In this document: piece after piece, positions 12,218 to 31,753 of the stretch
Layout: the number at the start of each line of letters is the position of its first letter
Position numbering within the stretch: the stretch's first letter is position 1
Assembly (NCBI RefSeq): GCF_000010625.1
Contig: NC_010296.1
Location: forward strand, 870,001 to 902,000
From: Microcystis aeruginosa NIES-843
GTDB taxonomy: Bacteria; Cyanobacteriota; Cyanobacteriia; Cyanobacteriales; Microcystaceae
Length of the DNA: 32,000 nucleotides
Direction of reading: 5' to 3'
Program-made: the position numbers and the translations under genes
The notes under the pieces: generated by a model
What the model was told of the DNA's origin: nothing
The model's database searches: none
The model's input: the letters and a program-made list of their open reading frames with translations, nothing else

Positions 12218-13339
12218 ATGAATGGCAACATTAGAGTCGGGAATCTCTTTGGAATTCCCTTTTATATTAATCCTTCTTGGTTCTTTGTTCTGGGGTTAAT
12301 TACCTTGACCTATGGGGGAGATTTAAGTCAGTTTCCCCAGTTAACGGGAATCATGCCCTGGCTATTAGGATTTTTTGCCGCTATTCTCCTATTTGCCTCC
12401 GTGGTTGCCCACGAATTAGGTCATAGTTTTGTTGCCATCGCCCAAGGTATTGAAGTCAAATCAATTACCCTCTTTTTATTCGGTGGGTTGGCAACTCTCG
12501 GCAGAGAATCGAAAACTCCCCTAGAAGCTTTTCTAGTAGCAATTGCCGGCCCTTTAGTTAGTTTACTGCTCTTCGGTATCTTCCTAATTATTGGTTCCAA
12601 TATTAGCTTAAATGCGCCCCTGGCGGCGATTCTTTCTCTCCTGGCCTATATCAACCTCGCCCTAGGGTTATTTAACCTGATCCCCGGTTTACCTCTAGAT
12701 GGTGGTAATATCCTTAAAGCCATCGTCTGGCAAGTAACGGGTAATCCCAATAAAGGGGTTTTATTCGCTAGTCGTTTCGGTCAATTTTTTGGTTGGTTAG
12801 CGATTGTCATCGGTGCGCTATCAATTCTCGGAATCAGTCAATTTGGCAGTGCTTGGACGCTATTAATTGGCTTTTTCCTTCTACAAAATGCTGGCTTTTC
12901 CGCTCAATCAGCTAAGGTTCAAGATTTCCTAAGTCGCTACACCGCTAAAGATGTTATCTCTCCTAATAGTCCTGTAGTGCCGATTAATTTAACCCTGCGC
13001 GAGTTTGCTAATAATTATGTTATCGGTAAACAACAATGGTCTAAATTCCTAGTTACCGATAGCGAAGGTAAACTATTGGGGGTGATTAATGTAGAGGCTC
13101 TGAAAACGATTCCCACTTCCCAATGGACAGAGGTAAATATCGGCCAGTTATTACAAACTAGCGAAAGTCTTAAACTGGTTTTGTCTGATACTTCTCTCTT
13201 AGATGTGGTGAAAATTTTGGAAGGCGAAAATTTATCTCAAGTGACAGTGGTAGAAGAAAACGGCACAGTTTTGGGATTAATTGAGAAAGCTTCTATCCTT
13301 ACTTTTCTCGCCCAAGAAACCCAAAGTCAAGCCGCTTAA
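12218..13339 (+). CDS. Site-2 protease family (M50) zinc metalloprotease with a C-terminal CBS pair
   Basis: It has an HELGH zinc motif, multiple TM helices, NLIPGLPLDGG, and CBS-like C-terminal repeats. The start is chosen at the internal ATG 12218 (MNGNIRVGNLFGIPF) rather than the ORF-track start at 12110. Confidence 0.8.
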   Translation: MNGNIRVGNLFGIPFYINPSWFFVLGLITLTYGGDLSQFPQLTGIMPWLLGFFAAILLFASVVAHELGHSFVAIAQGIEVKSITLFLFGGLATLGRESKTPLEAFLVAIAGPLVSLLLFGIFLIIGSNISLNAPLAAILSLLAYINLALGLFNLIPGLPLDGGNILKAIVWQVTGNPNKGVLFASRFGQFFGWLAIVIGALSILGISQFGSAWTLLIGFFLLQNAGFSAQSAKVQDFLSRYTAKDVISPNSPVVPINLTLREFANNYVIGKQQWSKFLVTDSEGKLLGVINVEALKTIPTSQWTEVNIGQLLQTSESLKLVLSDTSLLDVVKILEGENLSQVTVVEENGTVLGLIEKASILTFLAQETQSQAA

Positions 13340-13340
13340 T

Positions 13341-13375
13341 CAGTTATCAGTTATCAGTTATCAGTTATCAGTTAG
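13341..13375. repeat. Heptanucleotide repeat (CAGTTAT)x5
   Basis: It starts one nucleotide after the TAA stop of the M50 protease gene. Confidence 0.9.
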
Positions 13376-13430
13376 GTAAATGTAATTTTCACCTCAATAT
13401 TCTCGCATAATTTTGTCTAGTATCTCCTGA

Positions 13431-16099: not shown

Positions 16100-17042
16100 A
16101 AGGCGGTAATTACTTAGTGCTGCGCTTTGGTGATCTTGGCGGTCAAGCCGATTGGATTTGCGACAATTACCGCTCCCTGATCGGCTCGGCGGCGGAACTA
16201 TCAATTGATAGTCGTGAAGCGGCGAATCATCCTGATGTTATCGAATATATTAGTAATGCCGATATTCTTTTTTTTGCCGGTGGTGATCAAAATCAGTACG
16301 AGGATTTGTGGGAAAGCACAAAGGTGGAAACAGCGATCAATTATCTGATCAATGAGAAAAAAGTTCCCGTGGCGGGAACCAGCGCAGGAATGGCTATTCT
16401 GGGTGATTTTTACTATGCGCCCACTCACGAAGGGGTACTGAGTTCGGAAATATTAAATAATCCCTTTCACTTCAACACTAAAGACTTCTATCGGAGTGAT
16501 TTTATTCGGGTTCCTTTTCTCAAAAAAGTGGTGACAGATACCCATTTGGATCGACTCAATCAAGATCATCCCGAAACAAGATATGGTCGCCTTTTTGGTT
16601 TTTTAGCCCGCAATGTACACGATAATCACAATCAACTGCCCGCCTACGCTATCGGTTTAGAAGAAGGTGCTTTTCTGGCGATTGATGAGCATGGTATCGC
16701 CAAAGTCTACGGCAACGGCACCGATAAAGGACAAGATGCCTATTTTCTGCAAACTAACGGGACTCTACCCGAACAGATGGAGCCGGATCGGCCTTTAATC
16801 TGGAATAATAACGGTCAAGCGGTGAAAGTCTACCGCATCGCAGGAACTCCCTCCGGCAGCGGTAAATTTGACCTCAAGGATTGGTCTAGTGCTGCTGGCG
16901 GTCGCTGGGAATATTGGTACACTAAAGGGGGAATAGCTGGGTTTAAGCGGGTTCCAGTAGCCTGAAGTTCATTTTTGTCAAAAAAGTGATTTCTATGGGT
17001 TTTAGGATAAATTTTGAGGCAATACGGAGAGTTTTTTGAGCT

Positions 17043-17645
17043 ATGACCCCTGAATTAATCACTTTCGGTCGGTATCTCGCGGGTGAATTTGAAAATCAAC
17101 GGCAAGCGCAAGCAGAACCGGTGTGGTACGTTCACCTGCGTTTATGGTTGCGTCCGCTGCCTTTATTTCGGGAAGACAGCATCGCGCTTTTTGCCGAACA
17201 GGCCAGTATCATCAATTTAGACCAACCCTACCGACCGCGACTGTGGCGATTAACGCACTCGGAATCGGGAGGGTTAGAGGTTAGGCACTATATGTTTAAT
17301 GACCTGAAATCCGTGCAAGGTGCGGGCAAAAATCCCGATATTTTGCGAAAAATTAGCTTAGAAGACCTAACTTTCCTGCCTACCTGCACTTTAGCGGTCA
17401 AAGTCAATACTCTCGCTGATAATCAATACCAGTTTATCGCCCAACCGCAACCGGAACAGCGCTGTCAATTCACCTATGAGGGTACAACCTATCAGGTGGC
17501 TTTAGGTTTCGAGGTGACGAGTCATAGCCTAAAAACCTACGATAAAGGCCTAGATCCCGGCACTGGTAAGGGAATTTGGGGCGCTCTGCTCGGTCCCTAT
17601 CAATACGAGAAAAAACGGGATTTTTCGGCAGAATTGGATGTGTGA
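17043..17645 (+). CDS. cpcT: Phycobiliprotein bilin lyase, CpcT/CpeT family
   Basis: 200-aa ORF. The N-terminal LAGEFENQRQAQAEPVWYVHLRLW is typical of T-type lyases. Confidence 0.8.
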   Translation: MTPELITFGRYLAGEFENQRQAQAEPVWYVHLRLWLRPLPLFREDSIALFAEQASIINLDQPYRPRLWRLTHSESGGLEVRHYMFNDLKSVQGAGKNPDILRKISLEDLTFLPTCTLAVKVNTLADNQYQFIAQPQPEQRCQFTYEGTTYQVALGFEVTSHSLKTYDKGLDPGTGKGIWGALLGPYQYEKKRDFSAELDV

Positions 17646-17656
17646 GGAAGATTGCA

Positions 17657-17830
17657 TCACATTAGGTCAAAATGACGGCAGATGACACCGCAAAGAGCCG
17701 CTAAAGCGGTAATTCCTAAAGCTGTACCGATGTCTTGTCCTTGATTGACAGCAAAAGAAGTGACGATTCCCGCACCTAAACCGGCTGTGATTGCCGCTCC
17801 GAGAAAATCTTTATCCGAGTTTTTATACAT
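17657..17830 (-). CDS. Small glycine-zipper membrane protein (hypothetical)
   Basis: The ATG at 17830 gives a 57-aa product, MYKNSDKDFLGAAITAGLGAGIVTS...GITALAALCGVI. The longer ORF-track version starts at a TTG. Confidence 0.35.
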   Translation of the reverse strand: MYKNSDKDFLGAAITAGLGAGIVTSFAVNQGQDIGTALGITALAALCGVICRHFDLM

Positions 17831-17950
17831 AGAGATAAGGCCAAATTTCGACAAAATCGTGTTTTTTACCTTATCATCCTCTTTTGAGCAACTAATCACC
17901 CGGGAGCGGAATTGCAATTAAGCTTTAGATTTAGCCACGTTTCTTAACAT

Positions 17951-18143
17951 TAGATCTGCTGCAAAAATCAAAAATCTTCCGTTAGGTGAGGAGACTCTGA
18001 GATAGGAGACGGTCGCCAGGAGGAGAAAAAAGACAATAGACAACTATCCCATTCATAAAACCTAAGATTATGTCAAATTTATCTATTTTTTTGGGTATTT
18101 TGACCCGATGGCGGCTCGATAACTTACTTTTGCAGGAGGTCTA
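17951..18143. repeat. MITE-like element with inverted ends TAGATCTGCTGCA / TGCAGGAGGTCTA
   Basis: Its ends, and the subterminal sequence GGCTCGATAACTTACTTTTGCAGGAGGTCTATT, resemble those of the element at 30131-30270. Confidence 0.45.
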
Positions 18144-18177
18144 TTAAGTTGGGTAAGATAGATAGGAGGTAAAATCG

Positions 18178-18546
18178 ATGAAATTAGCTAAAATCTCTTT
18201 TTATGGCTTTTTAACTCTGATTATCTCCCTTTTGCTAATACTGAGTTTTGTTAATGCCAGCAAAGCACAATCGGATACGGCGGTAAGATCGGAGTTAATT
18301 AGTCTCCGCAATCGAGTCGAGCGCCTTGAAAGTCAGATTCGAGGAATATCCATCCGCGGGGAAAATGCCGCTCCGATTCCCCAACGGCGATCGGGAACGG
18401 GTATAGTAAATGGGGAAGTAGTCGGGGAAAGTGACCCACTGTTCCAGCGTTTAGCCACTTTAGTAATTGAACTAAAGGAAGATTTAAAAAAGCTAGAGCA
18501 ACGGGTGCAAATCTTAGAAAAAGAAACCGTTAGCCAGAAATCGTAG
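18178..18546 (+). CDS. Secreted coiled-coil protein (hypothetical)
   Basis: It has an N-terminal signal peptide (...LSFVNASKAQS) and heptad-rich segments. A GGAGG Shine-Dalgarno sequence lies upstream. Confidence 0.5.
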   Translation: MKLAKISFYGFLTLIISLLLILSFVNASKAQSDTAVRSELISLRNRVERLESQIRGISIRGENAAPIPQRRSGTGIVNGEVVGESDPLFQRLATLVIELKEDLKKLEQRVQILEKETVSQKS

Positions 18547-18589
18547 TCAATTGATGCTATAACGATCGAAAGTTAAATTGATCTCAACT

Positions 18590-20401
18590 ATGCAGTTAAT
18601 TGATTATGTAATTATCCTGCTTTATCTGGCAGGAACCCTAATAATCGGGATTATAGCCGAGAAAAAAGCTTCTCAAGGTCTAGAATCCTACTTTTTAGGT
18701 AATCGCAATTTGCCCTGGTGGATGTTAGGGGTGTCGGGAATGGCGGCTAACACCGATTTAGCGGGAACTATGGTCATTTCTGCCCTAATTTACGCCGTCG
18801 GCCCCAAAGGATTATTTATCGAAATCCGCGGCGGTGTTGTCCTAATTATGGCCTTTCTCATGGCTTTTATGGGCAAATGGAATCGCCGCGCCCAAGTTAT
18901 GACCATGGCGGAATGGATGCAATTTCGCTTTGGAACTGGAAAACAGGGGAATTTTGCCCGAATTATTAGCGCCGTCGCCACTCTCTTATTCTCTATCGGT
19001 GCGATGAGTTATTTCTCCGTTGCGGGGGGGAAATTTTTAGGGCAGTTTTTGGGCATGGATGATCGTCTTGCTTCGGTGATATTAATTCTTCTAACCTTAA
19101 TTTATACGGTGGCCAGTGGTTTTTATGGTGGGGTAATTACCGATTTATTTCAAGGATTTCTGATTTTTGTGGCGGTAATTTATGTATCGACAGTGGCTTT
19201 TTTTACTGTCAATCTTCCTGATAGTTTCACGGTAGCAATTCCGGGGGCAGCGGAGCCAAAAACTTGGAATTTAAGCGACTGGGCTAGTATTTTTCCTTCG
19301 ATGACTTTGGATTTACCCGGAGATTATGCCATCTTTAATTTGTTTGGTGGGGTGATTTTCTTTTATTTAGTTAAAACCATCATCGAAGGTTGCAGCGGCA
19401 GCGGTGGTTATATGTTACAACGATACCTAGCCGCCAAAAGCGATCGAGATGCCGGTTTATTATCTTTATTCTGGATTGTTCTGCTTTCTTTCCGTTGGCC
19501 TCTAGTCACAGCTTTTGCTGTTTTAGGCATTCACTACGGTTTAACCGAAGGCACGATTACAGATCCAGAAAGAATTCTGGCCACGGTCATTACTCAATAC
19601 ATTCCCGTGGGGATGAAAGGGTTATTAATTGCTGCTTTTTTAGCGGCAGCTATGTCCACTTTTAACGCAGTTATTAACGCTAGTGCTGCCTATTGGGTAA
19701 AAGATATCTATCAAGCTTTTTTGAAACCGAATGCGGGAGAACAGGAGTTAGTTTTTCAAGGTCGTTTGGCCTCGGTTTTTGTGGTAGTAATTGGCTTAGT
19801 TTTGAGTTTTAATATCCAAAATGTCAATGATATTTGGGGTTGGTTAACCACGGGATTAGGGGTGGGATTAGCAGTTCCTCTCCTATTACGTTGGTATTGG
19901 TGGCGCTTTAATGGTTATGGTTTTGCTGTGGGAACTTTAGCGGGAATGATTGCGGCTATTGCCTCACAAGTGATAATTTTACCTTTCTTTCGTCACAGTC
20001 AATATCAGGAATATATTCTCTTTCTTGTGCCGAGTTTGTTCGCTTTAGCTGGCTGTATTATCGCTACTTTGTTAACTCCTCCCACCGATAGTTTAGTTAT
20101 GGAAAATTTCTATAATGTTACCCGACCTTTTGGCTTTTGGGGAGAAGTCCGTCACAGTGTTAAACCTAATCTACAGGCAAAAATTAAAGCGGAAAATCAA
20201 CGGGATATCATTGCCGCTTTTCTCACTGTTCCTTGGCAATTAGTCCTCTTTATGATGGGGATTGTTTTAATCATCAAGCAGTGGCAAAGTTTGAAGATTT
20301 TGGCTTTGGTTTTTCTTTTACTTTCCATCGGTCTCTATTTTACTTGGTATCGCCACTTATCTAAGGAAATTACTGTCACTAAAGACCGAGATTTAGGTTA
20401 G
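18590..20401 (+). CDS. Sodium:solute symporter family (SSF) transporter
   Basis: About 600 aa with 13 or more predicted TM helices and SSF-like motifs. The start is placed at ATG 18590; the ORF track starts at TTG 18578. Confidence 0.7.
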   Translation: MQLIDYVIILLYLAGTLIIGIIAEKKASQGLESYFLGNRNLPWWMLGVSGMAANTDLAGTMVISALIYAVGPKGLFIEIRGGVVLIMAFLMAFMGKWNRRAQVMTMAEWMQFRFGTGKQGNFARIISAVATLLFSIGAMSYFSVAGGKFLGQFLGMDDRLASVILILLTLIYTVASGFYGGVITDLFQGFLIFVAVIYVSTVAFFTVNLPDSFTVAIPGAAEPKTWNLSDWASIFPSMTLDLPGDYAIFNLFGGVIFFYLVKTIIEGCSGSGGYMLQRYLAAKSDRDAGLLSLFWIVLLSFRWPLVTAFAVLGIHYGLTEGTITDPERILATVITQYIPVGMKGLLIAAFLAAAMSTFNAVINASAAYWVKDIYQAFLKPNAGEQELVFQGRLASVFVVVIGLVLSFNIQNVNDIWGWLTTGLGVGLAVPLLLRWYWWRFNGYGFAVGTLAGMIAAIASQVIILPFFRHSQYQEYILFLVPSLFALAGCIIATLLTPPTDSLVMENFYNVTRPFGFWGEVRHSVKPNLQAKIKAENQRDIIAAFLTVPWQLVLFMMGIVLIIKQWQSLKILALVFLLLSIGLYFTWYRHLSKEITVTKDRDLG

Positions 20402-20402
20402 G

Positions 20403-20510
20403 CAGTTATCAGTTATCAGTTATCAGTTATCAGTTATCAGTTTTAAGTTTTCAGTTTTCAGTTTTCAGTTATCAGTTTTCAGTTTTCAGTTTTCAGATTT
20501 GAGTTTTAAG
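20403..20510. repeat. Heptanucleotide repeat arm (CAGTTAT)5 followed by (CAGTTTT)n
   Basis: It starts 2 nt after the TAG stop of the SSF transporter gene. Confidence 0.9.
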
Positions 20511-20544
20511 TGTGCAGTATGGATTAGGTGAGCCTCATCAAATG

Positions 20545-20722
20545 CCAGTTTTCTACTGTCTTTTCACTGATTACTGTTTACTGATTACTGTTTACTGAAA
20601 ATAGCAGTTTCCTACTGTCTTTTTACTGATTACTGATTACTGATTACTGATTACTGATTACTGTTTACTGAAAATAGCAGTTTTCTACTGTCTTTTCATT
20701 GTTTACTGTTTACTGATCACTG
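20545..20722. repeat. Higher-order repeat: three units of [GCAGTTTYCTACTGTCTTTTYAY + (TGATTAC/TGTTTAC)n + TGAAAATA]
   Basis: Direct reading. The heptads are the complement-strand form of the CAGTAAT/CAGTAAA repeat seen at 1112-1226. Confidence 0.85.
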
Positions 20723-20738
20723 AATTAGGAGAGATCCC

Positions 20739-20767
20739 TTGACTTTTGCGGCGGCTTGGGTTATGAT
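20739..20767 (+). promoter_or_regulatory. Candidate promoter TTGACT-N17-TATGAT
   Basis: Sequence match only. A second TATAAT lies at 20773-20778, and a 19-codon hydrophobic sORF starts at 20777. Confidence 0.3.
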
Positions 20768-20961
20768 TTTCTTATAATGGGACTGTTGTGTTTATGGTTA
20801 AGTGGTTATATTTCCATTATTATTAAACTCTTTTAAAAATACTGTCCCAAAATCTGCCAAAAAAAGCAAGCAAAATTTTGCCGTCAATTGTTAAGTTTTG
20901 TTAAGAAAAATAGCAAGAGCGGCAAGGAATAGAAATCCCTTACCGTTGACTTTGGCCGGAC

Positions 20962-21399
20962 TCACCACTTCTTATAGGGTAAAAACTTACCCGACATAGT
21001 AATTTTAACGCGATCGCCTTTAGGGTCTTCCTCCTTATCCACGTCGAGGGTAAAATCGATCGCACTCATAATACCATCGCCGAATTTTTCATGAATCACC
21101 GATTTTAGTGGCATTCCATACACCTGCATGATCTCGTAGAAACGATAAATCAGGGGGTCGGTGGGGACAACAGGACCCAATCCCTTGACAGGATACTCGG
21201 TTAAGGATGCGACGATTTCGGTTCCCAGTCCCAAAGCTGCCACAATTTTCGTTGCTTCTTCTAGGGAGGCGCTCGCTTGCCGGTAAAAAACAGCGGCAAT
21301 CCACACCTCATCTCGTCCTAGAATCGCTTCTAGGTCAGCGAAACTGAGGCCTTTTTCCTTCTTCGCTTCCAATAGTTTTGCGGTAATTTCGGGTATCAT
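20962..21399 (-). CDS. cynS: Cyanase (cyanate hydratase)
   Basis: 145-aa [28 protein letters not shown]...FYRQ...[14 protein letters not shown], characteristic of CynS. Confidence 0.9.
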
Positions 21400-21498
21400 T
21401 GCTTATTTTTGCAGAATTTGTCTGCTTCTAGTTTACCTGAACATCAGTTATATAAGTAAAAGTTATGACATTGATAAAAAAACATTCCTTAAAACCCC

Positions 21499-21527
21499 TT
21501 TACATAACTATAAAAAGCCGATAGTAT
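21499..21527 (+). promoter_or_regulatory. Candidate psbA copy 2 promoter (TTTACA-N17-TAGTAT)
   Basis: It shares only the AAACCCCTTTACA -35 region with copies 1 and 3. The -10 box and 5' UTR differ. Confidence 0.45.
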
Positions 21528-21584
21528 TAACTCATGTCAAACAACGAACCTTGACAACCTAATACATACAGAAATTATCCAACC

Positions 21585-22667
21585 ATGACCACCACTCTAC
21601 AACAGCGCGAGAGCGCTTCCCTGTGGGAGCAGTTCTGTCAGTGGATCACCAGCACCAACAACCGCTTATACATCGGTTGGTTCGGTGTCATCATGATCCC
21701 CACCCTGCTCACCGCCACCACCTGCTTCATCATCGCCTTTATCGCCGCTCCTCCCGTAGATATCGACGGTATCCGCGAGCCTGTAGCCGGTTCTCTACTC
21801 TACGGAAACAACATCATCTCCGGTGCGGTTGTTCCCTCTTCCAACGCGATTGGACTCCACTTCTACCCCATCTGGGAAGCTGCTTCCTTAGATGAGTGGT
21901 TATACAACGGTGGTCCCTACCAGTTAGTCATTTTCCACTTCTTACTAGGTGTCTTCTGCTACCTCGGTCGTCAGTGGGAACTGTCTTTCCGTTTAGGAAT
22001 GCGTCCTTGGATCTGTGTTGCTTACTCCGCACCTGTATCCGCCGCTACTGCTGTATTCTTAATCTATCCCATCGGACAAGGTTCCTTCTCTGATGGTATG
22101 CCTTTAGGAATCTCTGGAACCTTTAACTTTATGTTCGTGTTCCAAGCAGAACATAACATCCTGATGCACCCCTTCCATATGTTAGGTGTTGCCGGTGTGT
22201 TCGGCGGTTCCTTGTTCAGTGCGATGCACGGTTCCCTAGTAACTTCTTCCTTAGTGCGTGAAACCACGGAAATCGAATCTCAGAACTACGGTTACAAATT
22301 CGGTCAAGAGGAAGAAACCTACAATATCGTTGCCGCTCACGGTTACTTCGGACGCTTAATCTTCCAATACGCTTCTTTCAACAATAGCCGCTCTCTGCAC
22401 TTCTTCTTAGGTGCTTGGCCGGTAATCGGTATCTGGTTTACGGCAATGGGTGTTAGCACCATGGCGTTTAACCTCAACGGGTTCAACTTCAACCAGTCGA
22501 TTCTCGATTCTCAAGGTCGTGTAATCGGTACTTGGGCCGATGTGCTGAACCGCGCTGGTATCGGTATGGAAGTAATGCACGAGCGCAATGCTCACAACTT
22601 CCCCTTAGACTTGGCTAGTGGTGAACAGGCTCCTGTAGCTCTGATTGCTCCTGCTATCAATGGTTAA
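21585..22667 (+). CDS. psbA: Photosystem II D1 protein, copy 2
   Basis: The 360-aa protein is identical to copies 1 and 3. The DNA differs at scattered synonymous sites, and the upstream region is distinct. Confidence 0.98.
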
Positions 22668-22687
22668 TTCCTAGTCTGAACGAAAAG

Positions 22688-22713
22688 GCACTCCCGCGAG
22701 GGGGTGCTTTTTT
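22688..22713 (+). terminator. psbA copy 2 terminator
   Basis: GCACTCCC-GCGA-GGGGGTGC followed by TTTTTT. Confidence 0.8.
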
Positions 22714-22738
22714 GTTGTTAGAATTATGATATAGCTCA

Positions 22739-22990
22739 ATGTTAAATGGAATCAATTTTATGTTATCTTCTCTGATAATTGAACTGGAACAAAAGTTACG
22801 AGACTGTTCTCTTGAAGATAAACAATGGTTATTGGAGCAGTTACATCAACAATTAGGATTGAATAATCAAAAAACAACTAAACAACGATTAATAGATAGT
22901 TGGAATGAAGCTTATAGTGATGGATTGGACGAATCAGAAACTTTAATGTTAGAGCGAATACGGCATCATCAAAGCCAATTATCTGAGTAA
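22739..22990 (+). CDS. Putative antitoxin (uncharacterised helical protein) upstream of MazF
   Basis: 83-aa ORF (possibly starting at the internal Met, MLSSL...). Its stop lies 2 nt before the mazF-like ATG. It shows no recognisable AbrB/MazE motif. Confidence 0.5.
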   Translation: MLNGINFMLSSLIIELEQKLRDCSLEDKQWLLEQLHQQLGLNNQKTTKQRLIDSWNEAYSDGLDESETLMLERIRHHQSQLSE

Positions 22991-22992
22991 AT

Positions 22993-23349
22993 ATGACGAT
23001 TTTTCAAGGAGAGATTTATTGGATTGATTTAGGAGAACCACAAGGTTCTGAACCTGCTTATCTTCGTCCTTGTGTTGTGGTGCAAAATGATGCTCTGAAT
23101 CAGTCACAAATTGGGACGGTTATTGTGTGTCCATTAACAACCAATTTGAGACGAGCAAAAGCTATTGGTAATGTTTTATTGAATGAGGGTGAAGGGAATT
23201 TACCAGAATCCAGTGTTGTTAATGTTTCGCAGGTTTTCACGGTTGATAAGCGTCTTTTAACAGAGTCTATCGGAAGACTTTCTCGGGAAAAAATCAAATT
23301 AATTATTCAGGGAATTAATTTGGTTATTGAACCTCAAGAACTCGAATAA
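22993..23349 (+). CDS. mazF: Type II toxin, PemK/MazF-family endoribonuclease
   Basis: 118 aa. GEIYWIDLGEPQGSEPAYLRPCVVVQNDALN ... VIVCPLTT ... SVVNVSQVFTVDKRLL matches the MazF/PemK fold signature. Confidence 0.85.
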   Translation: MTIFQGEIYWIDLGEPQGSEPAYLRPCVVVQNDALNQSQIGTVIVCPLTTNLRRAKAIGNVLLNEGEGNLPESSVVNVSQVFTVDKRLLTESIGRLSREKIKLIIQGINLVIEPQELE

Positions 23350-23417
23350 TAGGGGGTTATAAAAGGATTTAAAGAATCCATTAACACAAAAAAAGCACGA
23401 AAATAGATTACAGCATC

Positions 23418-23710
23418 GCCGCTCACGGTTACTTCGGACGTTTAATACTAAATCCGTTGAGTATATGCTGCTTATAAGGACAGGCAAAAGGCCACCCCCC
23501 CTGCCCCCCGACATCGGGGGGCAGGGGGGAATAAATAATCAGTTTTTAATAACCGGATTTAGTATTATCGGTACTTGGGCCGATGTCTTAAACCGCGCTG
23601 GTATCGGTATGGAAGTAATGCACGAGCGTAATGCACATAACTTCCCCTTAGACTTGGCTAGTGGCGAACAGGCTCCTGTAGCTCTGATTGCTCCTGCTAT
23701 CAATGGTTAA
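23418..23710 (+). pseudogene. psbA: psbA 3' remnant (29-bp and 143-bp psbA-homologous blocks separated by a palindromic element)
   Basis: 23418-23446 matches psbA ...GCCGCTCACGGTTACTTCGGACGTTTAAT. 23568-23710 encodes ...[47 protein letters not shown] plus the stop. The full psbA terminator follows. Confidence 0.9.
23444..23567. repeat. 124-bp palindromic MITE-like element
   Basis: Terminal inverted repeats AATACTAAATCCG / CGGATTTAGTATT. The central perfect hairpin is CCCCCCTGCCCCCCGA-CA-TCGGGGGGCAGGGGGG. Confidence 0.6.
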
Positions 23711-23730
23711 TTCCTAGTCTGAATGAAAAG

Positions 23731-23756
23731 GCACTCCCGCGAGGGGGTGCTTTTTT
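23731..23756 (+). terminator. Duplicated psbA terminator after the remnant
   Basis: The hairpin and T-run are identical to those of copy 2. Confidence 0.75.
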
Positions 23757-23810
23757 GTTGTTAGAATTGGGGAACGGGGTACAATAAAAGGGACTTCTCT
23801 AGGCGGAAAT

Positions 23811-24101
23811 ATGGCTACAGGCATCGATATTGGCGAATTTATTGTTGCTAGTCCGGATATCTGTAATGCTCGTCCCCGGATTGCGGGAACTAGAATCACG
23901 ATTCAAAGTTTAGTCATGGATCATAAAACGGGAATGAGTGCCGAAGCGATCGCTAGGGAGTATCCTCAGTTAAATCTGGCTCAAATTTATAGCGCTCTAG
24001 CGTATTATCACGCGAATAAAGAACGGATAGAAGCCGATATCGATGCTTACCGAGCGGATTGTGAAGACTGGGAATCCCGATATCGAGCCGGTGAATTGTA
24101 A
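23811..24101 (+). CDS. DUF433-domain protein (putative antitoxin)
   Basis: 96 aa. CNARPRIAGTRITIQSLV...GMSAEAIAREYPQLNLAQIYSALAYY is the DUF433 signature. Confidence 0.8.
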   Translation: MATGIDIGEFIVASPDICNARPRIAGTRITIQSLVMDHKTGMSAEAIAREYPQLNLAQIYSALAYYHANKERIEADIDAYRADCEDWESRYRAGEL

Positions 24102-24466
24102 TGAGTCAAATCCGTCTCTACCTTGATGAAGATGCGGGTCAACGCTCGGTCGTGCAAGCTTTGCGGAATCTGAAGATTGATGTAATTACCACTTGGGAAG
24201 CGGACAACATTCAGCTACCCGATCCCGATCAACTGGTTTGGGCAACCCAGCAAGGTCGGGTAATTTATACTTTTAATGTAGGCGATTTTTGTCGATTGCA
24301 TAAATCATATATGATGCGCTCGATGAGCCATACGGGAATTATCGTGGCCGCGAAACAAAGATATTCCGTGGGAGAACAGGTAAAAGCTATTGCCAATTTA
24401 ATCGCTACCCGCTCTGCCGAAGATATCAAGAATCAACTCATCTTTTTAGGGGATTATCTAGAATAG
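24101..24466 (+). CDS. DUF5615 / PIN-like (Mut7-C-type) protein (putative toxin)
   Basis: 121 aa beginning IRLYLDEDAGQRSVVQALR. Its start overlaps the DUF433 stop (TAATG). Confidence 0.7.
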   Translation: MSQIRLYLDEDAGQRSVVQALRNLKIDVITTWEADNIQLPDPDQLVWATQQGRVIYTFNVGDFCRLHKSYMMRSMSHTGIIVAAKQRYSVGEQVKAIANLIATRSAEDIKNQLIFLGDYLE

Positions 24467-24495: not shown

Positions 24496-25583
24496 TAAGT
24501 ACCTAGGCAAAATTAATTACATACTCGCCTCCAAAATTGTCCAGCACTTTTTTAACGTAAGCGAGGAGGCTCTTTCGGTCTTTATAGGCGCTAAATTCAA
24601 TCCATTCATATTTTAAAAATCTCCATAATATTTCAATTAAATTTAAATGAGGTGAATAAGTGGGCAACCAAAATATTTTCAAGTTTTTCTTTTCCCATTC
24701 CTCAAGTTTCTCCATAAATGCCTCGCTGGTATGAATGGAAGCTTGGTCAATTATTATGACAGTTTTTTTCTGTATATTTTGGCAATATTTATCCAGAAAA
24801 TTAATAACTATCTCGCTAGTAACCGTTCCGACCTGTGTCTCATAAAATAATTGATTATCTCGTTTCATTATTCCTAAAATATTTAGTCTTTTACCTTCAA
24901 TTGGTGGTAACTTTATCGTGGTTTTTTCTTCTTGCCAAGCCTCAGGAAGACAAGGCTTTGAATCCCCTCCCATTTCATCCAAATATCCTATCTCAATCTC
25001 TCCTCTTTTTTCCTGTTTTTTTAGTTCTTCTAAAATAGGTATTTTGACCTCAAGCTCCCACTCATCAGGGGTTTTGGCGACCCCTCTTCTCACCCTTTTC
25101 CACCTCATGTTGATTTTTTTTATGAGTCTTTTTATCTTGTCTTTGCTTACGGTTAATTTCCCTTCTTCTACAATTTTTATCTGGATTTTTTTTAAGCTTT
25201 TCGGTTCTTCTTTTACCCAGTCAATAACTTGTTGACCTTGTGCTTCTGTCAATTTAGGTTTTCTCCCTCTTCCTCGACGATTATAAAAACCAATTAGTTT
25301 TCTATCTTCCCAGGCCGTCAACCAATTATAGATGGTCTTTCTCGTAACTCCAAATATTCCGCTCAATTCTTCTATCGTGGTTCCCTGAAAACTTAAGAGT
25401 ATACATTTCGCTCGCTCTCTTACTTGATGATGTTTACTAGCTCGATAAATTCTCTCTAGCATTTTCTGGCTCTCGGGGTTTAGGTCTCTAATCAATCTCA
25501 TTGTATTTTCCTGCTGCTTCGTTTTTTTATGTATTATACTTCTTAATTTTTTATTTGGGTAATTAATTTTGCATGACTACTTA
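24496..25583 (-). mobile_element. IS630-family insertion sequence (type 3)
   Basis: 25-bp IRs: TAAGTACCTAGGCAAAATTAATTAC (24496-) against the reverse complement of GTAATTAATTTTGCATGACTACTTA (-25583). Both termini are TA. Confidence 0.8.
24503..25501 (-). CDS. IS630-family DDE transposase (single ORF)
   Basis: 332 aa. It has an HTH (LSGIFGVTRKTIYNWL) and a DDE region (GYLDEMG, IIIDQASIH, WLPTYSPHLNLIEILW). Confidence 0.85.
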   Translation of the reverse strand: MRLIRDLNPESQKMLERIYRASKHHQVRERAKCILLSFQGTTIEELSGIFGVTRKTIYNWLTAWEDRKLIGFYNRRGRGRKPKLTEAQGQQVIDWVKEEPKSLKKIQIKIVEEGKLTVSKDKIKRLIKKINMRWKRVRRGVAKTPDEWELEVKIPILEELKKQEKRGEIEIGYLDEMGGDSKPCLPEAWQEEKTTIKLPPIEGKRLNILGIMKRDNQLFYETQVGTVTSEIVINFLDKYCQNIQKKTVIIIDQASIHTSEAFMEKLEEWEKKNLKIFWLPTYSPHLNLIEILWRFLKYEWIEFSAYKDRKSLLAYVKKVLDNFGGEYVINFA

Positions 25584-25609: not shown

Positions 25610-25777
25610 ATGACTCACGAACGTAGATAAAATTTACTCCCCGCAGATTTCAAACGCTTAACTGGAGTCTATCCCGATAATTTCGCCCTAATGGTCAAAG
25701 TCGTATCGGCCGAGAGGGCATTTCACAAAAAGATGGGAAGACCTAGTAAATTAAGCAGAGATTTTGCACAAATGTAG
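25610..25777 (+). pseudogene. IS5-family transposase N-terminal remnant
   Basis: ...FKRLTGVYPDNFALMVKVVSAERAFHKKMGRPSKLS resembles IS5-family N-termini. There is an in-frame TAA at codon 7 and the sequence is truncated after about 55 codons. Confidence 0.45.
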
Positions 25778-25931
25778 GGCTGAAGCAAGAGAAAGAGAAA
25801 TTTTAGCTAATTTTAAGGAATTGAAACAGGCGATCGCTGCTGGAACAGTCAGAAGGGGAACCGTAGAAGATTTGATTGCTGATTTTAATGAGGATTAACA
25901 ATTTATTTTTAGTTTTTCGGAAGATGGAGAA

Positions 25932-26969
25932 TATAGCAATTCTTGGAGCTATGAGGTACAATAGAAAGTAAATAGACAAATAATAGAACTTACCAGCTTC
26001 CTATGAGACCCTATTCCGTAGATTTTCGCCAAAAAATTATCGATGTCTGGAAGAAAGAAAAAATTTCCATTCGAGGACTAGCCCAGAGATTTGACGTGGC
26101 TAAAAGCTTTATTCAGAAGTTATTGAAGCAACATAAAGAAACAGGAGATATCCGTCCTCGTCCGCAAGGGGGAAGTCCGCCAACCAAGTTAAATAGTGAA
26201 CAACTGATAATTTTAATAGAAATCATCGAAGCTAACAATGATGCAACTCTCGAAGAATTATCGGACTTACTGTATGAAAAGACACAGGTGAAAGTCAGTA
26301 GAGCCACCCTGGGGCGGCTTACGCAAAAACTCAATTACAGTTTCAAAAAAAAACACTACACGCGGCGGAAAAAGAAAGTGACAGGGTACAGCAAAAAAGA
26401 GTGGAATACTGGTCAGAAGTTCGGGAAATTGAGGCATCAAAACTAATTTTCATCGAGGAATCGGGGGTAAATTTAGCCCTTTTGAGACTCTATGCTAGAG
26501 CCTTAATTGGCCGAAGAGCTCGGGGAAGAAAACCACAAAAAAGAGGGAGAAATATTTCAATAATTAGTGCTATAAGCTTAGAAAAAGTTGTCGCATCAGT
26601 CAACATATACGGTGCAGTGGATGCGGTAACATTTGAAGGATTTATTCTAAAGGAAGTGCTGCCAAAAATTAAAGAAGGAGACTGTCTGATCATGGATAAC
26701 GCCAAGATTCATCTCGGAGAAATGGTCAGAGAAATAATCGAACAAGAAAAAGCTAGACTCATCTATTTACCTCCTTATTCTCCCGAATTCTCTCCTATTG
26801 AAAACTTTTGGTCAAAAGTGAAAGCGACGTTAAGAAAACTGAAGGCGAGAACTTACAAAGACTTAATAGAAGGGATTGAATTGGCTATGTTAGAAGTTAC
26901 TCAAAAAGATATTCGCAATTGGTTTACTCACTGTTGCTACTGTACCTCATAAGTCAGAGAATTGCTATA
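25932..26969 (+). mobile_element. IS630-family IS, copy B (apparently intact)
   Basis: 28-bp IRs flanked by TA. It is near-identical to copy A (3671-4708) in inverted orientation. Confidence 0.9.
26003..26952 (+). CDS. IS630-family transposase in two overlapping frames, probably fused by a -1 frameshift at an A9 run
   Basis: ORF A is 26003-26446 (HTH domain) and ORF B is 26401-26952 (DDE; YLPPYSPEFSPIENFW). Reading in the -1 frame from the A9 run at 26345-26353 gives the family-typical KKKTLHAAEKESDRVQQKRVEYWSEV junction. Confidence 0.8.
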
Positions 26970-27142
26970 TTTAGAAGTTATCATCTTGTTAATTGATATT
27001 GGTAGTCACGATCAGGTGTATAGAAAATAGGCTAGACTAGACAGCGATCGCTGATATTGATCATAAGGTCATTTTTGAACATAGCTAAAATTGGATGGAT
27101 TTGGGAAAACTGATTCTAATTTTCTGGATTTTATTACACAAT

Positions 27143-27179
27143 AAAAAAGTTATCGTCGTTTTAAAAAGAGCGATAACTT
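27143..27179 (-). terminator. Candidate terminator downstream of the RTX-repeat gene
   Basis: On the minus strand, AAGTTATCG-(15-nt loop)-CGATAACTT is followed by TTTTATT. Confidence 0.45.
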
Positions 27180-27236
27180 GCACTACTTTCTTTGTTGTAG
27201 CTATATTATGTGAGCTTATAGGGTTTTAACAAAAGG

Positions 27237-27722
27237 CTACCAACCCTGAGTCACTTGATTAGAATTGAGAAATAATTGACCTCTGTCAACAGTAGTAAAA
27301 TTGCGATCTTCAATAACCCCAATAAGGTTTCCATCAAGACTAATCAGGGTATCAGCAGCACTACCTCCACTTATATTGACAGTCTGTAACTGAATACGAG
27401 AAGAGCGATAATTAATTCCATCAGCAAGTACAACCCAATCATAACGAATATCAAATTGTCTGAGAGTAGCATAGCCTGAACTCATATAAAAGCTAGTATT
27501 ACCTGTGCCTAGTACATAGTAATCTGTACCACCGCCACCAAGTAAAACATCTCGATCAATATGTGCCGTTGTTCCTGCACCTCCGGAAGCACCTTGTAAC
27601 CAGTCATTACCATTACCTCCAGTGAGGGTGTCATTACCATTTAAGCCAAAAAGCCGATCATTAGAGTTACTTCCGATTCGATTAATGAGATTGTTTCCTG
27701 ATGTACCATAAACGTCTGCCAT
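27237..27722 (-). CDS. Calcium-binding RTX (hemolysin-type) repeat protein
   Basis: 161 aa containing GLNGNDTLTGGNGNDWLQG and GGGGTDYY nonapeptide-type repeats. Confidence 0.7.
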   Translation of the reverse strand: MADVYGTSGNNLINRIGSNSNDRLFGLNGNDTLTGGNGNDWLQGASGGAGTTAHIDRDVLLGGGGTDYYVLGTGNTSFYMSSGYATLRQFDIRYDWVVLADGINYRSSRIQLQTVNISGGSAADTLISLDGNLIGVIEDRNFTTVDRGQLFLNSNQVTQGW

Positions 27723-27802
27723 AGTCTAAACTCCTTAATCATCAAAATTTTTTGAATTTTTATACCTAAAATTATCTAAGTCACTTTTAGGATTGACAAG
27801 CG

Positions 27803-27825
27803 GAAAAGTCGGCAATTCTGCCGAC
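27803..27825 (-). terminator. Candidate terminator downstream of the STAND NTPase gene
   Basis: On the minus strand, GTCGGCAGAATTGCCGAC is followed by TTTTCC. Confidence 0.5.
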
Positions 27826-27918
27826 TGACAGCCGGGTAAAAAGTCAGATGAGTCAGATTTTTGGTAAAATGTATCTTAAAATACAGAAAAATTAACGATT
27901 CAATAATACTGCTTGCGT

Positions 27919-29493
27919 TTAAACTTCAGCACTAGCTAACTCATTAATAAATTGTTTAATAATCGGCAAGGTGTTAAAAGCACAAGAATGTTCATCTTCT
28001 AGTTTCTCTAATAAATTTCTTCTCAGCAAAGACTGAATAGCTTTAAACAAACTAGAGGGATGTTCCGATAAATTTTGCAATAAGTTTTCTAAGGTGATCT
28101 CCTGTTCCTCTTGACTGATAACCCTCATTACTTTTTGTTCTAATTTTGATAAAGATTGCCACTGCTTTAATAAAATATCTCCTAACTCATCCGGAATAAT
28201 TTTATAATTCAAAAAAGAAGATGCTTGGTTATTAAATAGAGTCTTAATTGATTGAGTCGCTATTTTAAAATAAAGAGGATTTCCTCCATATTGATCAATC
28301 AATAATGACCATTTTTCATCCTCTTTTAAATTGGCCATTCTGAAAATTTCCTTAGCTGACTCTTGTAACCCCTCCAACTTAAGGAAATAGCTTGATTCGT
28401 CTTGAGTCAACGATTTCCTAATTATATCAGAGACAAAGATAACACAACTTTGATGTTCCAAATTAGGGTTCTTCGTTACTTGGTATGGTTCGATAGGGGG
28501 GCATAAATCGACTAAATCCTTATCTGGCAAGAGACTTAATTGATTAGTTCGCTCTAGATAAAAAACAATTGACAAAAATCGCTAAATGCCTTTCTATATA
28601 AGGGTTCCATCCCTTATAACCCCCGTCCATTGCATAACAATTACCGAAGAGCCCAAATTAGTAGAATAATAAAGAAATTGTTCGCAATCTTCATAACCAG
28701 AGCGGTAAATTCCCGAAATTTGACCTTCTTGAAAAAGGGTTTCACCTTGATCTAAAATGAGGAGACATTTATGTTTTTGTAGATAGCTCAGTAATTTATA
28801 GTTTAAATTTTCTGGCTCATCTTCAAAGACTTTGTTATCATTAAAAAGCTGAAATAGAGCTAATTTAAGCTCTCTCCAAGAATTATAAAATGATAAATTG
28901 CGCCAAATGACACAATCAAAGTTATCTTTAATTTTCTCGACTAATTGAACGGTTAAGGTCGTTTTCCCAATTCCTTTGACTCCAGTAATTTCTATCAAAT
29001 TATATTGCTGATTTAAAATAGCTTCTGCTAAAAGATTCACATCATTTTCTCGTCCAAAACAAAATTTTAAAGCTGGCATTTGTGACAAATCACAAGGATT
29101 TGAAGATGAAGCAGAGGGATTCTGATCTTGATAAATTGCTATATTTACATCATTATAGTTATTAACTAAAATAGAATTTTGTAAAGAATTACTATGATGA
29201 GAGTGATCCAAATATAATTGATGTGAACCTTCGTGAAACTCCCAACTTTTTAATCGAGATTTAGCATTAGATTTCGTAATATTTTCGTTCAAGTTATCTG
29301 ACATAAGTTTCCACAACTTAGAACCTTCATCTTTAATGTAACCATCGCTGTAACCAATCTCTTCAGCAATGGTAAAATAGCTTTTATCCATCATTGTCCC
29401 CAAAATAATCTGTTTTTGAATTAAATTTAAGTATTTACCCGTAGCCGTATAAACGATTTTTTCAACAAAGGCAAGAATCGGCAGGAAATCCAT
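27919..29493 (-). pseudogene. STAND-type (NB-ARC-like) P-loop NTPase with an N-terminal HTH-like domain, interrupted by a MITE
   Basis: It has a Walker A (GVKGIGKTTL), a Walker B (CLLILDQGE), HQSCVIFVSD, GGNPLYF and a C-terminal winged-helix-like region. ORFs 28594-29493 and 27919-28575 rejoin in frame (...YYSTNL-EHQSC...) when 195 bp are removed. Confidence 0.75.
28458..28661. mobile_element. 186-bp MITE (28467-28652) flanked by a 9-bp direct duplication CCAAATTAG
   Basis: The 9-mer occurs at 28458-28466 and at 28653-28661. The ends are imperfect inverted repeats (GCTCTTCGGTAATTG / GGTTCTTCGTTACTTGG on the gene strand). There is an internal hairpin ATAAGGG-ATGGAA-CCCTTAT. Confidence 0.7.
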
Positions 29494-29670
29494 GCTCAGT
29501 TACTGTTCATTATATTTTTGGTTCTACTATACAATAAGATTACATTTTTGTGGAGTATCAGCAGAGGGATATGTTGTGGTTGGTGGAGGCAATAGGGCTA
29601 ATGGTACTGAGGCATTTCGTTAGACACAAGCAACCGGGATAGTGAGACTAGGGGATTTATCGGGGGGTAG

Positions 29671-30554: not shown

Positions 30555-31637
30555 ATGACCACCACTCTACAACAGCGCGAGAGCGCTTCCCTGTGGGAGC
30601 AGTTCTGTCAGTGGATCACCAGCACCAACAACCGTTTATACATCGGTTGGTTCGGTGTCATCATGATCCCCACCCTGCTCACCGCCACCACCTGCTTCAT
30701 CATCGCCTTTATCGCCGCTCCTCCTGTAGATATCGACGGTATCCGCGAGCCTGTAGCCGGTTCTCTACTTTACGGAAACAACATCATCTCCGGTGCGGTT
30801 GTTCCCTCCTCCAACGCGATTGGACTCCACTTCTACCCCATCTGGGAAGCTGCTTCCTTAGATGAGTGGTTATACAACGGTGGTCCTTACCAGTTAGTCA
30901 TTTTCCACTTCTTACTAGGTGTCTTCTGCTACCTCGGTCGTCAGTGGGAACTGTCTTTCCGTTTAGGAATGCGTCCTTGGATCTGTGTAGCTTACTCTGC
31001 ACCCGTATCCGCCGCTACTGCTGTATTCTTAATCTATCCCATCGGACAAGGTTCCTTCTCTGATGGTATGCCTTTAGGAATCTCTGGAACCTTTAACTTT
31101 ATGTTCGTGTTCCAAGCAGAACATAACATCCTGATGCACCCCTTCCATATGTTAGGTGTTGCCGGTGTGTTCGGCGGTTCCTTGTTCAGTGCGATGCACG
31201 GTTCTCTAGTAACTTCTTCCTTAGTGCGTGAAACCACTGAAATCGAATCTCAGAACTACGGTTACAAATTCGGTCAAGAGGAAGAAACCTACAATATCGT
31301 TGCCGCTCACGGTTACTTCGGACGTTTAATCTTCCAATACGCTTCTTTCAACAATAGCCGCTCTCTGCACTTCTTCTTAGGTGCTTGGCCGGTAATCGGT
31401 ATCTGGTTTACGGCAATGGGTGTTAGCACCATGGCGTTTAACCTCAATGGTTTTAACTTCAACCAGTCGATTCTCGATTCTCAAGGTCGTGTAATCGGTA
31501 CTTGGGCCGATGTGTTAAACCGCGCTGGTATCGGTATGGAAGTAATGCACGAGCGCAATGCTCACAACTTCCCCTTAGACTTGGCTAGTGGTGAACAGGC
31601 TCCTGTAGCTCTGATTGCTCCTGCTATCAATGGTTAA
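30555..31637 (+). CDS. psbA: Photosystem II D1 protein, copy 3
   Basis: The 360-aa protein is identical to the other copies. Confidence 0.98.
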
Positions 31638-31657
31638 TTCCTAGTCTGAACGAAAAG

Positions 31658-31683
31658 GCACTCCCGCAAGGGGGTGCTTTTTT
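31658..31683 (+). terminator. psbA copy 3 terminator
   Basis: GCACTCCC-GCAA-GGGGGTGC followed by TTTTTT. Confidence 0.8.
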
Positions 31684-31753
31684 GTTGTTAGAATTGGGGA
31701 ACGGGGTACAAATGAAAAACGCTGCAAAATGCTTATTCTCAAACAATCATCAT

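Follow-up and report, generated by a model that had tools for sequence, protein, structure and literature searches.

A mazEF-like toxin–antitoxin (TA) cassette in Microcystis aeruginosa NIES-843 sits between a complete psbA gene and a 5′-truncated psbA remnant, within a window of 32,000 nucleotides (NC_010296.1, positions 870,001 to 902,000 of the forward strand; coordinates below are those of the window unless a locus is named). We conclude that this arrangement is an old recombination scar where psbA copies reshuffle their neighbors, and not the fresh insertion of a mobile circle. We put at roughly 0.8 the probability of the general picture, in which an old psbA-linked mazEF passenger stands beside a 5′-truncated psbA paralogue that has been patched by gene conversion. 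Across Microcystis, the cassette is an old, fixed 3′ neighbor of a psbA paralogue. The locus consists of the following features (CDS, coding sequence; ORF, open reading frame; MITE, miniature inverted-repeat transposable element; TIR, terminal inverted repeat).

21585-22667, + strand: psbA copy 2, full length, encoding the 360-aa D1 protein (ORF list and translation)
22679-22716, + strand: psbA intrinsic terminator, first copy, hairpin plus T-run (ViennaRNA fold, -26.0 kcal/mol)
22726-23364, + strand: mazEF-like cassette, ending in GGGGGTTATAAAA
22739-22990, + strand: antitoxin gene, 83 aa, unclassified
22993-23349, + strand: MazF/PemK toxin gene, 118 aa
23365-23382 and 23383-23414, + strand: S1 and S2, the native 3′ spacer of the cassette
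23418-23446, + strand: remnant piece A, psbA CDS 748-776, 29 of 29 positions identical to psbA copy 3 (repeat family D8)
23443-23567, no strand assigned: MITE-like hairpin element, 125 bp, with TIRs at 23443-23456 and 23554-23567
23567-23710, + strand: remnant piece B, psbA CDS 940-1083 including the stop codon
23722-23759, + strand: psbA terminator, second copy (fold energy -23.5 kcal/mol), overlapped by a 12-mer at 23757-23768

As the first-pass annotation had stated, the psbA 3′ end, its terminator, and the 12-mer GTTGTTAGAATT recur 1043 bp downstream and bracket the antitoxin and MazF genes. The repeat finder placed family D4 at 22519-22741, 23562-23784, and 31489-31711, with the first two members spaced 1043 bp apart. 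Taken as 22524-22725 and 23567-23768, the bracketing repeats are in direct orientation, 202 nt each and 96% identical, one psbA copy being complete and the other truncated. The 12-mer is found at 22714-22725, 23757-23768, and 31684-31695, and the 16-mer GGGGAACGGGGTACAA follows it in the remnant flank (23769-23784) and in the copy-3 flank (31696-31711), with none after the first 12-mer. The claim that one and the same flank follows the remnant and copy 3, which repeats the remnant in direct orientation 7.9 kb farther on, stands as far as GGGGAACGGGGTACAA at 31696-31711 is concerned; the position given for it, 31686, was ∼10 nt off. Elsewhere in the window, these features bear on the analysis.

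7533-8615, - strand: psbA copy 1, full length (ORF translation)
20962-21399, - strand: cynS, upstream neighbor of psbA copy 2
23811-24101 and 24101-24466, + strand: DUF433 and DUF5615 genes, a second TA-like module (Pfam matches)
24503-25501, - strand: IS630-type transposase gene (332 aa), directly after DUF5615
30555-31711, + strand: psbA copy 3 (CDS 30555-31637) with terminator, 12-mer, and 16-mer

Copies 1, 2, and 3 encode an identical 360-aa D1 protein and differ from one another at 7-16 of 1083 nucleotides (98.5-99.4% identity). Their terminator has the stem GGCACTCCC/GGGGGTGC, followed by TTTTTT; it was clear by direct folding, and a consensus terminator scan had missed the same hairpin. 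A scan of one genome per species recovered 35 loci in which the terminator sequence was kept 3′ of psbA, 34 of them titled Microcystis, and ∼40 further loci came from exact-protein look-ups and a metagenome scan (comparison loci carry L numbers). The remaining locus, L030 (JAPZTO010000014.1, labeled as a Beijerinckiaceae metagenome-assembled genome [MAG]), is a 1173-bp contig 97% identical to Microcystis psbA plus terminator and is almost certainly a binning contaminant. psbA with its terminator and GTTGTTAGAATT is a dispersed repeat of ∼1.2 kb, present in five full copies in NIES-843. The duplicated terminator now appears to double as the sole strong terminator downstream of mazF.

The cassette is a predicted type II TA module, consisting of a predicted MazF/PemK endoribonuclease and an unclassified putative antitoxin. 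The toxin matched Pfam PemK_toxin (PF02452; E = 5.6e-28, 97.8 bits, cut-off 23.1) and, over residues 1-112, M. tuberculosis MazF6 in PDB (E = 1.5e-21). Searches of Pfam, NCBIfam, and PDB returned no match for the 83-aa antitoxin, and one source calls a relative “antitoxin YdcD.” The antitoxin ORF stops 2 nt 5′ of the mazF ATG at 22993, and the two genes are kept as a pair in all cassette contexts. The module resembles MazEF/PemK systems (M. tuberculosis MazF6, B. subtilis EndoA/YdcE) in its PemK fold family and in the small gene ending 2 nt before the toxin start; it differs in that its antitoxin fits no described family. NIES-843 encodes two identical MazF proteins, BAG00862 and BAG05638.

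The psbA remnant is in two pieces, separated by the hairpin element. This element has perfect 14-nt TIRs (TAATACTAAATCCG), a fold energy of -65 kcal/mol, and no coding capacity, and since related copies are present elsewhere in Microcystis (L013, L024, L034, and L040), we classify it as a MITE. It stands in place of psbA CDS 777-939, flanked by psbA 776 and psbA 940 with the 163 bp between them lost, and no clean target-site duplication can be read. On the left, the spacer meets psbA at ...GATTACAGC joined to ATCGCCGCTCACGG, where intact psbA reads ...CCTACAATATCGTTGCCGCTCACGG; this illegitimate junction (...TTACAGC joined to ATCGCCGC...) falls near psbA CDS 733-748. An 81-aa ORF (23465-23710) runs through the remnant and is the annotated MAE10410 (BAG00863.1), already recorded as a partial psbA for NIES-843 (Kaneko et al. 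2007, DNA Res; PMC2779907). That record concerns the same object but gives its existence only, without the mazEF link, the two-piece and MITE anatomy, the junctions, or a strain comparison; in the literature searched, the remnant anatomy and the comparative picture appear undescribed, while the remnant itself was already annotated. The whole window arrangement is reproduced in independent ENA metagenome contigs (L006, L007, L010, L046-L048), and a scan of JGI metagenomes for the junction between the MITE and piece B gave 0 matches. Two further candidates for psbA-derived sequence were rejected: spacers S1 and S2 as decayed psbA, because a by-eye comparison gave no above-chance alignment and S1 is native to the cassette in every context; and the 57-aa cluster representative P0002 as a source of further remnants, because all it contained were psbA tails cut off by assembly breaks at the beginning of contigs.

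Cassette contexts were compared across strains. The left junction, the 12-mer followed by ATGATATAGCTC, is constant in every cassette context, as against at least five forms of the right-hand side.

Context A (window; L006, L007, L010, L046-L048): S1-S2 joined to piece A-MITE-piece B-terminator-12-mer-16-mer-DUF433
Context A′ (L031, strain LSC13-02): spacer, then DUF433-DUF5615 behind ∼4 kb of other genes and a diverged terminator-like sequence; remnant absent
Context B (L001-L005, L008, L009, L036, L063, L070): identity stops at GGGGGTTATAAAA (23364), followed by 5′-truncated Coq4
Context C (L021, L039, L051-L055): S1 joined to psbA CDS ∼1015-1083 plus a different terminator
Context D (L025, the complete genome of M. 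ichthyoblabe FBCC-A1114, and L056): antitoxin-ΔmazF-S1-S2′-piece A-MITE′, then unrelated DNA

Contexts A and D have exactly the same junction between S2 and piece A and the same MITE insertion point: the MITE occupies the same position in L025 and L056, and piece A begins at the same spacer junction in L025, L056, and a metagenome contig, L049. Their cassettes have diverged by ∼5.5% (18-20 of 332 positions). Because junction and MITE point are common to A and D despite the diverged cassettes, the junction must be older than the split between the lineages, and the remnant junction is ancient. The spacer behaves as part of the cassette, S1 being common to contexts C and D and to L031, and S2 to L025 and L056; a JGI metagenome scan for S1 returned only L021-type and L025-type contexts. 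Context C also lends the first-pass annotation some support, in that an additional psbA-tail remnant of independent origin stands behind this cassette in other strains. The L039 contig (Microcystis sp. M015S2 MAG) shows at 169-990 a psbA terminator, a 5′ scrap of mazF, and a DUF433/DUF5615-like pair, scrap and pair together taking the place of the 5′ part of the antitoxin gene; mazF behind them is interrupted, and TA insertions are nested at one psbA 3′ end.

The window arrangement is not fixed and was seen only in NIES-843-like sequences. Copy-3-type loci lacking the cassette were found in L014, L015, L017, and L044, L049 being the one locus that ties this type to the remnant, and in L031 and L035 the DUF433/DUF5615 pair is preceded by a diverged terminator-like sequence with no psbA. 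Loci with cynS-psbA and no cassette exist in other genomes, but no site equal to the occupied site minus the unit was found, that is, no psbA-12-mer-GGGGAAC-DUF433; the orthologous cynS-psbA loci (L024, L061, L064, and L066) carry other flanks.

In context B, cassette and psbA moved jointly. Full-length Microcystis Coq4 has 217 aa, and its gene directly follows the YiaAB gene in the empty loci L068 and L069. In the complete genome of L063, a 3.4-kb block lies within Coq4 and runs from 1.6 kb of DNA upstream of psbA through the gene itself, its terminator, and the 12-mer to the cassette. The region upstream of this psbA matches the corresponding one in context D (L025). The block is bracketed by a 10-bp direct repeat, AAAAGCGATC (L063 2369-2396 and 5795-5804), which may reflect either duplication of the target site or integration at a microhomology. 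This repeat overlaps an HIP1-like GCGATC motif. Other strains have Coq4 intact, and the psbA-cassette block entered it as one piece; psbA was copied there as a unit with the cassette and offered no pre-existing landing pad. Positions 22714-23364 (12-mer plus cassette) are identical at 651 of 651 nt in the Coq4-context contigs L001-L005, L008, and L009, while the Coq4-context cassette of L036, from another strain, has 33 mismatches to that of the window. Identity within NIES-843-like sequences, against mismatches in L036, therefore argues that copies within one genome are homogenized, with concerted evolution reaching the cassette. A MITE of ∼190 bp at 28467-28657 has copies in many Microcystis loci, one of which (L001 1821-2012) lies right after the cassette in the Coq4 context and further splits the truncated Coq4.

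The remnant itself bears the marks of exchange. The translation of piece B is identical to that of the full copies, and its 7 differences from copy 2 are all synonymous. As the first-pass annotation had noted, the third-position variants GTC, CGT, GCA, CAT, and GGC are absent from all three full copies of the window; the remnant also has one difference in the 3′-untranslated region (UTR), a T at 23724. Synonymous changes make up 23.6% of the possible single-base changes in the block, and five of five would arise by chance with P ∼7e-4. The annotation had taken these variants as a sign of a foreign psbA allele, a view that did not survive comparison: in a table of ∼50 psbA 3′ ends, CGT, GCA, CAT, and GGC were common among Microcystis psbA copies, and GTC (23587) was the only variant private to the remnant. 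In L001, whose cassette is identical, the adjoining full psbA matches the remnant at all but 2 of 144 positions. Synonymous-only divergence of a gene fragment can stem from conversion by a pool of functional paralogues and need not indicate foreign origin.

In L049, the segment S2-piece A-MITE-piece B agrees with the window over 382 nt apart from a cluster of four sites, all with full-copy alleles; the contig then runs into a copy-3-type flank without the GGGGTACA insertion. The four-site patch looks like a single gene-conversion tract, and would mean that the remnant is still exchanging sequence with full copies. Two attempts to trace the remnant's source failed. The allele signature CGT/GCA/CAT, UTR T, and terminator G was common both to the copy-3-type psbA of L014 and to cassette-linked psbA (L031, L001), so it cannot assign the remnant's origin. 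A phage origin of remnant or cassette was also rejected: BLAST against 50,697 phage records gave only marine cyanophage psbA, whose longer matches reached at most 89% identity over at most 74 nt, and a scan of viral contigs for both terminator types found nothing.

Cyanobacterial psbA multigene families undergo concerted evolution by gene conversion. The window fits this pattern in its full copies, 98.5-99.4% identical and encoding the same protein, in its mosaic 3′ ends, and in its swapped flanks; it differs in that the tracts reach beyond psbA into a linked TA module and in that a truncated copy still takes part. The swapping of flanks is plain from the comparison loci. Sequence common to psbA paralogue loci usually stops at TGTTAGAAT(T), and beyond this point it is highly variable: the flank types include the mazEF cassette, the copy-3-type GGGGAACAATG... 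with a Uma2-family gene, DUF433/DUF5615 pairs, XisH/XisI, several non-TA genes, a YafQ/RelE-like gene pair, and a third flank, which holds a different PemK-family pair in BLCC-F210. The YafQ-like assignment rests on PF15738 matches that are mostly marked “weak” on the 93/94-aa gene directly after psbA (NCBIfam E = 1e-4, below the cut-off) and unmarked only on the 95-aa gene of a second pair (L064 and L072). A TA-like pair opens about one-third of the distinct flank types, in a genus whose genome-wide TA density is itself high.

At cynS-psbA, a synteny conserved in L024, L061, L064, and L066, five genomes have four different downstream contents; L024 is syntenic with window 16110-22735 and then has a different flank, YafQ-like pairs follow in two genomes, and XisH/XisI follows in another. 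The upstream side moves too, the copy-1 upstream region being joined to the cassette in L051 and to the third flank in L033. Such swaps are the expected product of homologous recombination between dispersed 1.2-kb repeats, and repeat-mediated rearrangement has been described in the IS (insertion sequence)- and MITE-rich Microcystis genome (Kaneko 2007, PMC2779907). The suggestion that psbA 3′ ends act as landing pads for TA cassettes is accordingly only half sustained, since other TA-like modules (YafQ/RelE-like, a second PemK-family pair, and DUF433/DUF5615) do occur at the same junction but the Coq4 context has psbA inserted together with the cassette. We would rather describe psbA 3′ regions as recombination-prone boundaries with TA modules alongside. 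A full-length psbA with the same terminator type, followed by a Ser/Thr kinase gene, lies on a plasmid (L057, NZ_CP025929.1 4062-5144; M. aeruginosa NIES-2481 plasmid p1, 147.5 kb), so extrachromosomal psbA homology exists; in L071, a psbA on a chromosomal contig is followed by this kinase flank too. No plasmid-borne cassette was found, this psbA on p1 being the sole Microcystis plasmid match.

The short sequences at the right-hand boundary also differ among strains. GGGGAACGGGGTACAA occurs at both the remnant and the copy-3 flanks only in NIES-843; copy-3-type loci elsewhere read GGGGAACAATG, without GGGGTACA, and other strains read ...GAGCTACAATAAAAGGGAC before DUF433. After the remnant was formed, there must have been exchange between the remnant and copy-3 flanks, or a joint at the near-identical GGGG(A/T)ACAAT motifs. 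The 12-mer and 16-mer together form a promoter-like TTGTTA-16-TACAAT (23758-23785) directly upstream of DUF433. L031 and L035 have a similar TTGTTC...TACAAT spacing before DUF433, and in the copy-3 flank the 8-nt GGGGTACA insertion gives a -10-like TACAAA at the same 16-nt spacing.

From these observations we propose the following history. Homologous recombination and gene conversion between psbA repeats swap upstream and downstream partners and homogenize the linked cassettes. The downstream fragment is the 3′ tail of another psbA paralogue, fused to the native spacer of the cassette by one illegitimate junction. As the step that made this junction we tentatively put a deletion in cis first, at a little under even odds, because it is a single event and both of its ingredients are observed; what was lost would be the 5′ two-thirds of a directly oriented psbA downstream, along with everything from the cassette up to it. 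Later, a MITE split the psbA tail, 163 bp of which was lost, and full copies are still patching the remnant by gene conversion.

The first ingredient, a deletion that truncates psbA, is seen in an M. wesenbergii MAG (L042), where a psbA tail (from ∼CDS 855) is separated by 84 nt from the homologue of window 28655-29501 that precedes it. Against the synteny upstream of copy 3 in NIES-843, this amounts to a simple loss of 1.9 kb; the truncated psbA (reverse complement of 4127-4402) has its terminator and a “124-aa gene” flank. The other is seen in BLCC-F210 (L067, CP169647.1, 1-5083), with two full psbA genes in direct orientation 3.4 kb apart. Between them lie a second-family PemK pair, a DUF433/DUF5615 pair, and GUN4, and the downstream psbA is at the “124-aa gene” locus, where psbA is a 69-nt tail in context C (L021/L051-type). 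L042 also has a segment homologous to window 25757-29501 placed after a copy-3-type psbA, an order that is circularly permuted with respect to NIES-843.

Other routes to the same structure have to be weighed. The first-pass annotation had proposed Campbell-type integration of a small circle. In the form weighed here, a small non-replicating circle, produced by illegitimate excision at a psbA-mazEF locus, would hold mazEF and its spacer together with psbA CDS ∼733-1083, the terminator, and the 12-mer; it would enter by a RecA-dependent single crossover, and the unit could hop between psbA paralogues. The architecture does fit a single crossover, with a full gene, cargo, and a truncated copy in direct orientation, and a 1043-bp unit bracketed by direct repeats of 202-223 nt. 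The annotation was also right that recombination between these repeats would remove the unit and restore a psbA-terminator-12-mer-GGGGAAC junction like that of copy 3. Other findings agree with such a circle, namely the occurrence of the remnant structure with two distal flanks (DUF433 in the window, copy-3-type in L049), the second cassette-psbA-tail arrangement with its different terminator, the 10-bp direct repeat around the Coq4 block, as circle integration at microhomology would leave, and a full psbA on a Microcystis plasmid. Nevertheless, we consider this route unlikely. None of the evidence is specific to a circle, whose junction would be the same as the integrated one; the junction is old and common to diverged lineages; the Coq4 block holds a full psbA with 1.6 kb of upstream DNA and not a 3′ arm, psbA and cassette having been inserted there as a block; L031 has mazEF and DUF433 and no remnant; the remnant alleles are ordinary pool alleles, subject to conversion; no empty orthologous site, with psbA joined to DUF433, was found, nor a circle, an integrase, or an attachment (att) site; L049 may be chimeric; and excision plus integration makes two events, against one for deletion. 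The stronger form of the idea, that mazEF with the psbA 3′ fragment is an integrase-free mobile unit, excised as a circle via psbA repeats and able to re-enter at any psbA or by transformation, we regard as improbable. If it were true, addiction modules would spread within and among Microcystis genomes by using as a portable attachment site a multi-copy photosynthesis gene that is essential and highly conserved, a process that would have left its footprint in the variety of TA-like pairs found immediately behind psbA terminators.

We give no better chance to one-sided homologous capture, in which a linear psbA-mazEF-spacer end, from natural transformation or an ectopic break-repair copy, would pair with a resident psbA over ∼1 kb while its heterologous end was joined by microhomology inside that gene, replacing the resident 5′ part and leaving its tail and flank. 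A single event of this kind gives exactly the observed structure and accounts for the constant left and variable right ends, for illegitimate joints twice in psbA (CDS ∼733 and ∼1015), and for the short microhomologies at these joints (TACA and T/TT), which are also short enough to be due to chance. Joints that recur inside psbA, always in direct orientation, suit Campbell-type integration as well. In L021 and L051 the tail terminator differs from that of the full copy, as expected of a recipient tail, yet no full-length psbA with the second terminator type was present among the fetched loci, nothing observed points directly to transformation or to donor or recipient states, and the final sequence would be the same as that of the deletion and Campbell products. 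Homology-facilitated illegitimate recombination was reportedly described by de Vries and Wackernagel in 2002 and by Prudhomme et al. in 2002; the present case resembles it in having one long homologous anchor (psbA), one microhomology joint, and a constant versus a variable side, and differs in that incoming DNA is not shown here and that the joint lies within the anchor's homologue, so that part of the anchor is duplicated and recipient DNA is not simply deleted. Considerably less probable is a local tandem duplication that begins at psbA CDS ∼733 and extends to the spacer, yielding the order psbA-cassette-psbA tail-cassette, after which the second cassette would be lost or exchanged along with its flank by homologous recombination with a further psbA copy. 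It would use the same illegitimate junction, psbA tails demonstrably swap flanks, and NIES-843 has two identical cassette copies; but no fetched locus has a remnant followed by the 12-mer and cassette in tandem, the second NIES-843-type cassette is in the old Coq4 context and not in tandem, and at least two further events would be required. Genomic islands integrate into the 3′ ends of tRNA and tmRNA genes and leave an intact gene, the insert, and a displaced 3′ fragment as a direct repeat, which the window resembles, and a phage, island, or integron-like cassette might likewise have used the psbA 3′ end as an att site. This reading is close to excluded. Apart from the antitoxin and MazF genes and the remnant ORF, the unit contains no ORFs, with no integrase or recombinase in or adjoining it, and the nearest transposase, the IS630-type DDE gene at 24503-25501, lies outside; the repeats are long (202 nt, 94-96% identical) and mosaic, unlike the short, exact cores of att sites; five contexts show different right boundaries; close phage and viral matches are absent; and, unlike the target of such islands, the gene is protein-coding and multi-copy, with a cargo of only 0.64 kb.

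Several points weigh against the picture of an old scar made by deletion and kept in exchange with full copies. The Campbell product, one-sided capture, and cis deletion leave the same final junction, and sequence cannot separate them. The pre-deletion state of the window lineage, that is, the cassette, intervening DNA, and a full psbA with the GGGGAAC flank, was not found among the loci compared. Two independent junctions between the cassette and the interior of psbA (CDS ∼733 and ∼1015), both in direct orientation, are also what recurrent psbA-anchored integration would produce. Only L049 connects the remnant with the copy-3 flank, and this 650-nt k141 metagenome contig may be chimeric across the shared repeat; several of the comparison loci are MAG contigs. 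Finally, the 16-mer shared only within NIES-843 fits no model cleanly.

The Microcystis psbA family acts as a set of dispersed 1.2-kb repeats as well as photosystem genes, with flanks exchanged, a TA module carried along, and truncated tails left behind. These repeats help explain why assemblies break at psbA loci, and psbA 3′ amplicons or read counts can take in nonfunctional remnants. The same behavior may account for the clustering of TA modules in the variable DNA beside psbA, and it offers a concrete, testable example in which accessory genes hitch-hike on homology supplied by an essential multi-copy gene.

Some further features of the window concern its repeats and neighboring genes. Two 1039-bp copies of an IS630-type IS (3670-4708 and 25932-26970) are inverted and 100% identical, each with HTH_32 and DDE_3 ORFs in two frames, and the transposase gene at 24503-25501 is a third, related member. 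Recombination between the identical copies could invert 21 kb, including psbA copies 1 and 2. Upstream of psbA copy 3, a 299-aa ORF (28594-29493, - strand) has NB-ARC/STAND NTPase domains and may be defense-related; related VMAP-M9/NB-ARC genes adjoin psbA in L064, L066, and L072. Long arrays of 7-nt tandem repeats (CAGTTAT and ACTGATA types) occupy intergenic DNA at 1087-1420, 13322-13388, and 20394-20753, and a GGGGTGT array lies at 11305-11360; tandem-repeat types of the window are also found within the inserted DNA of L063 (1770-1810).

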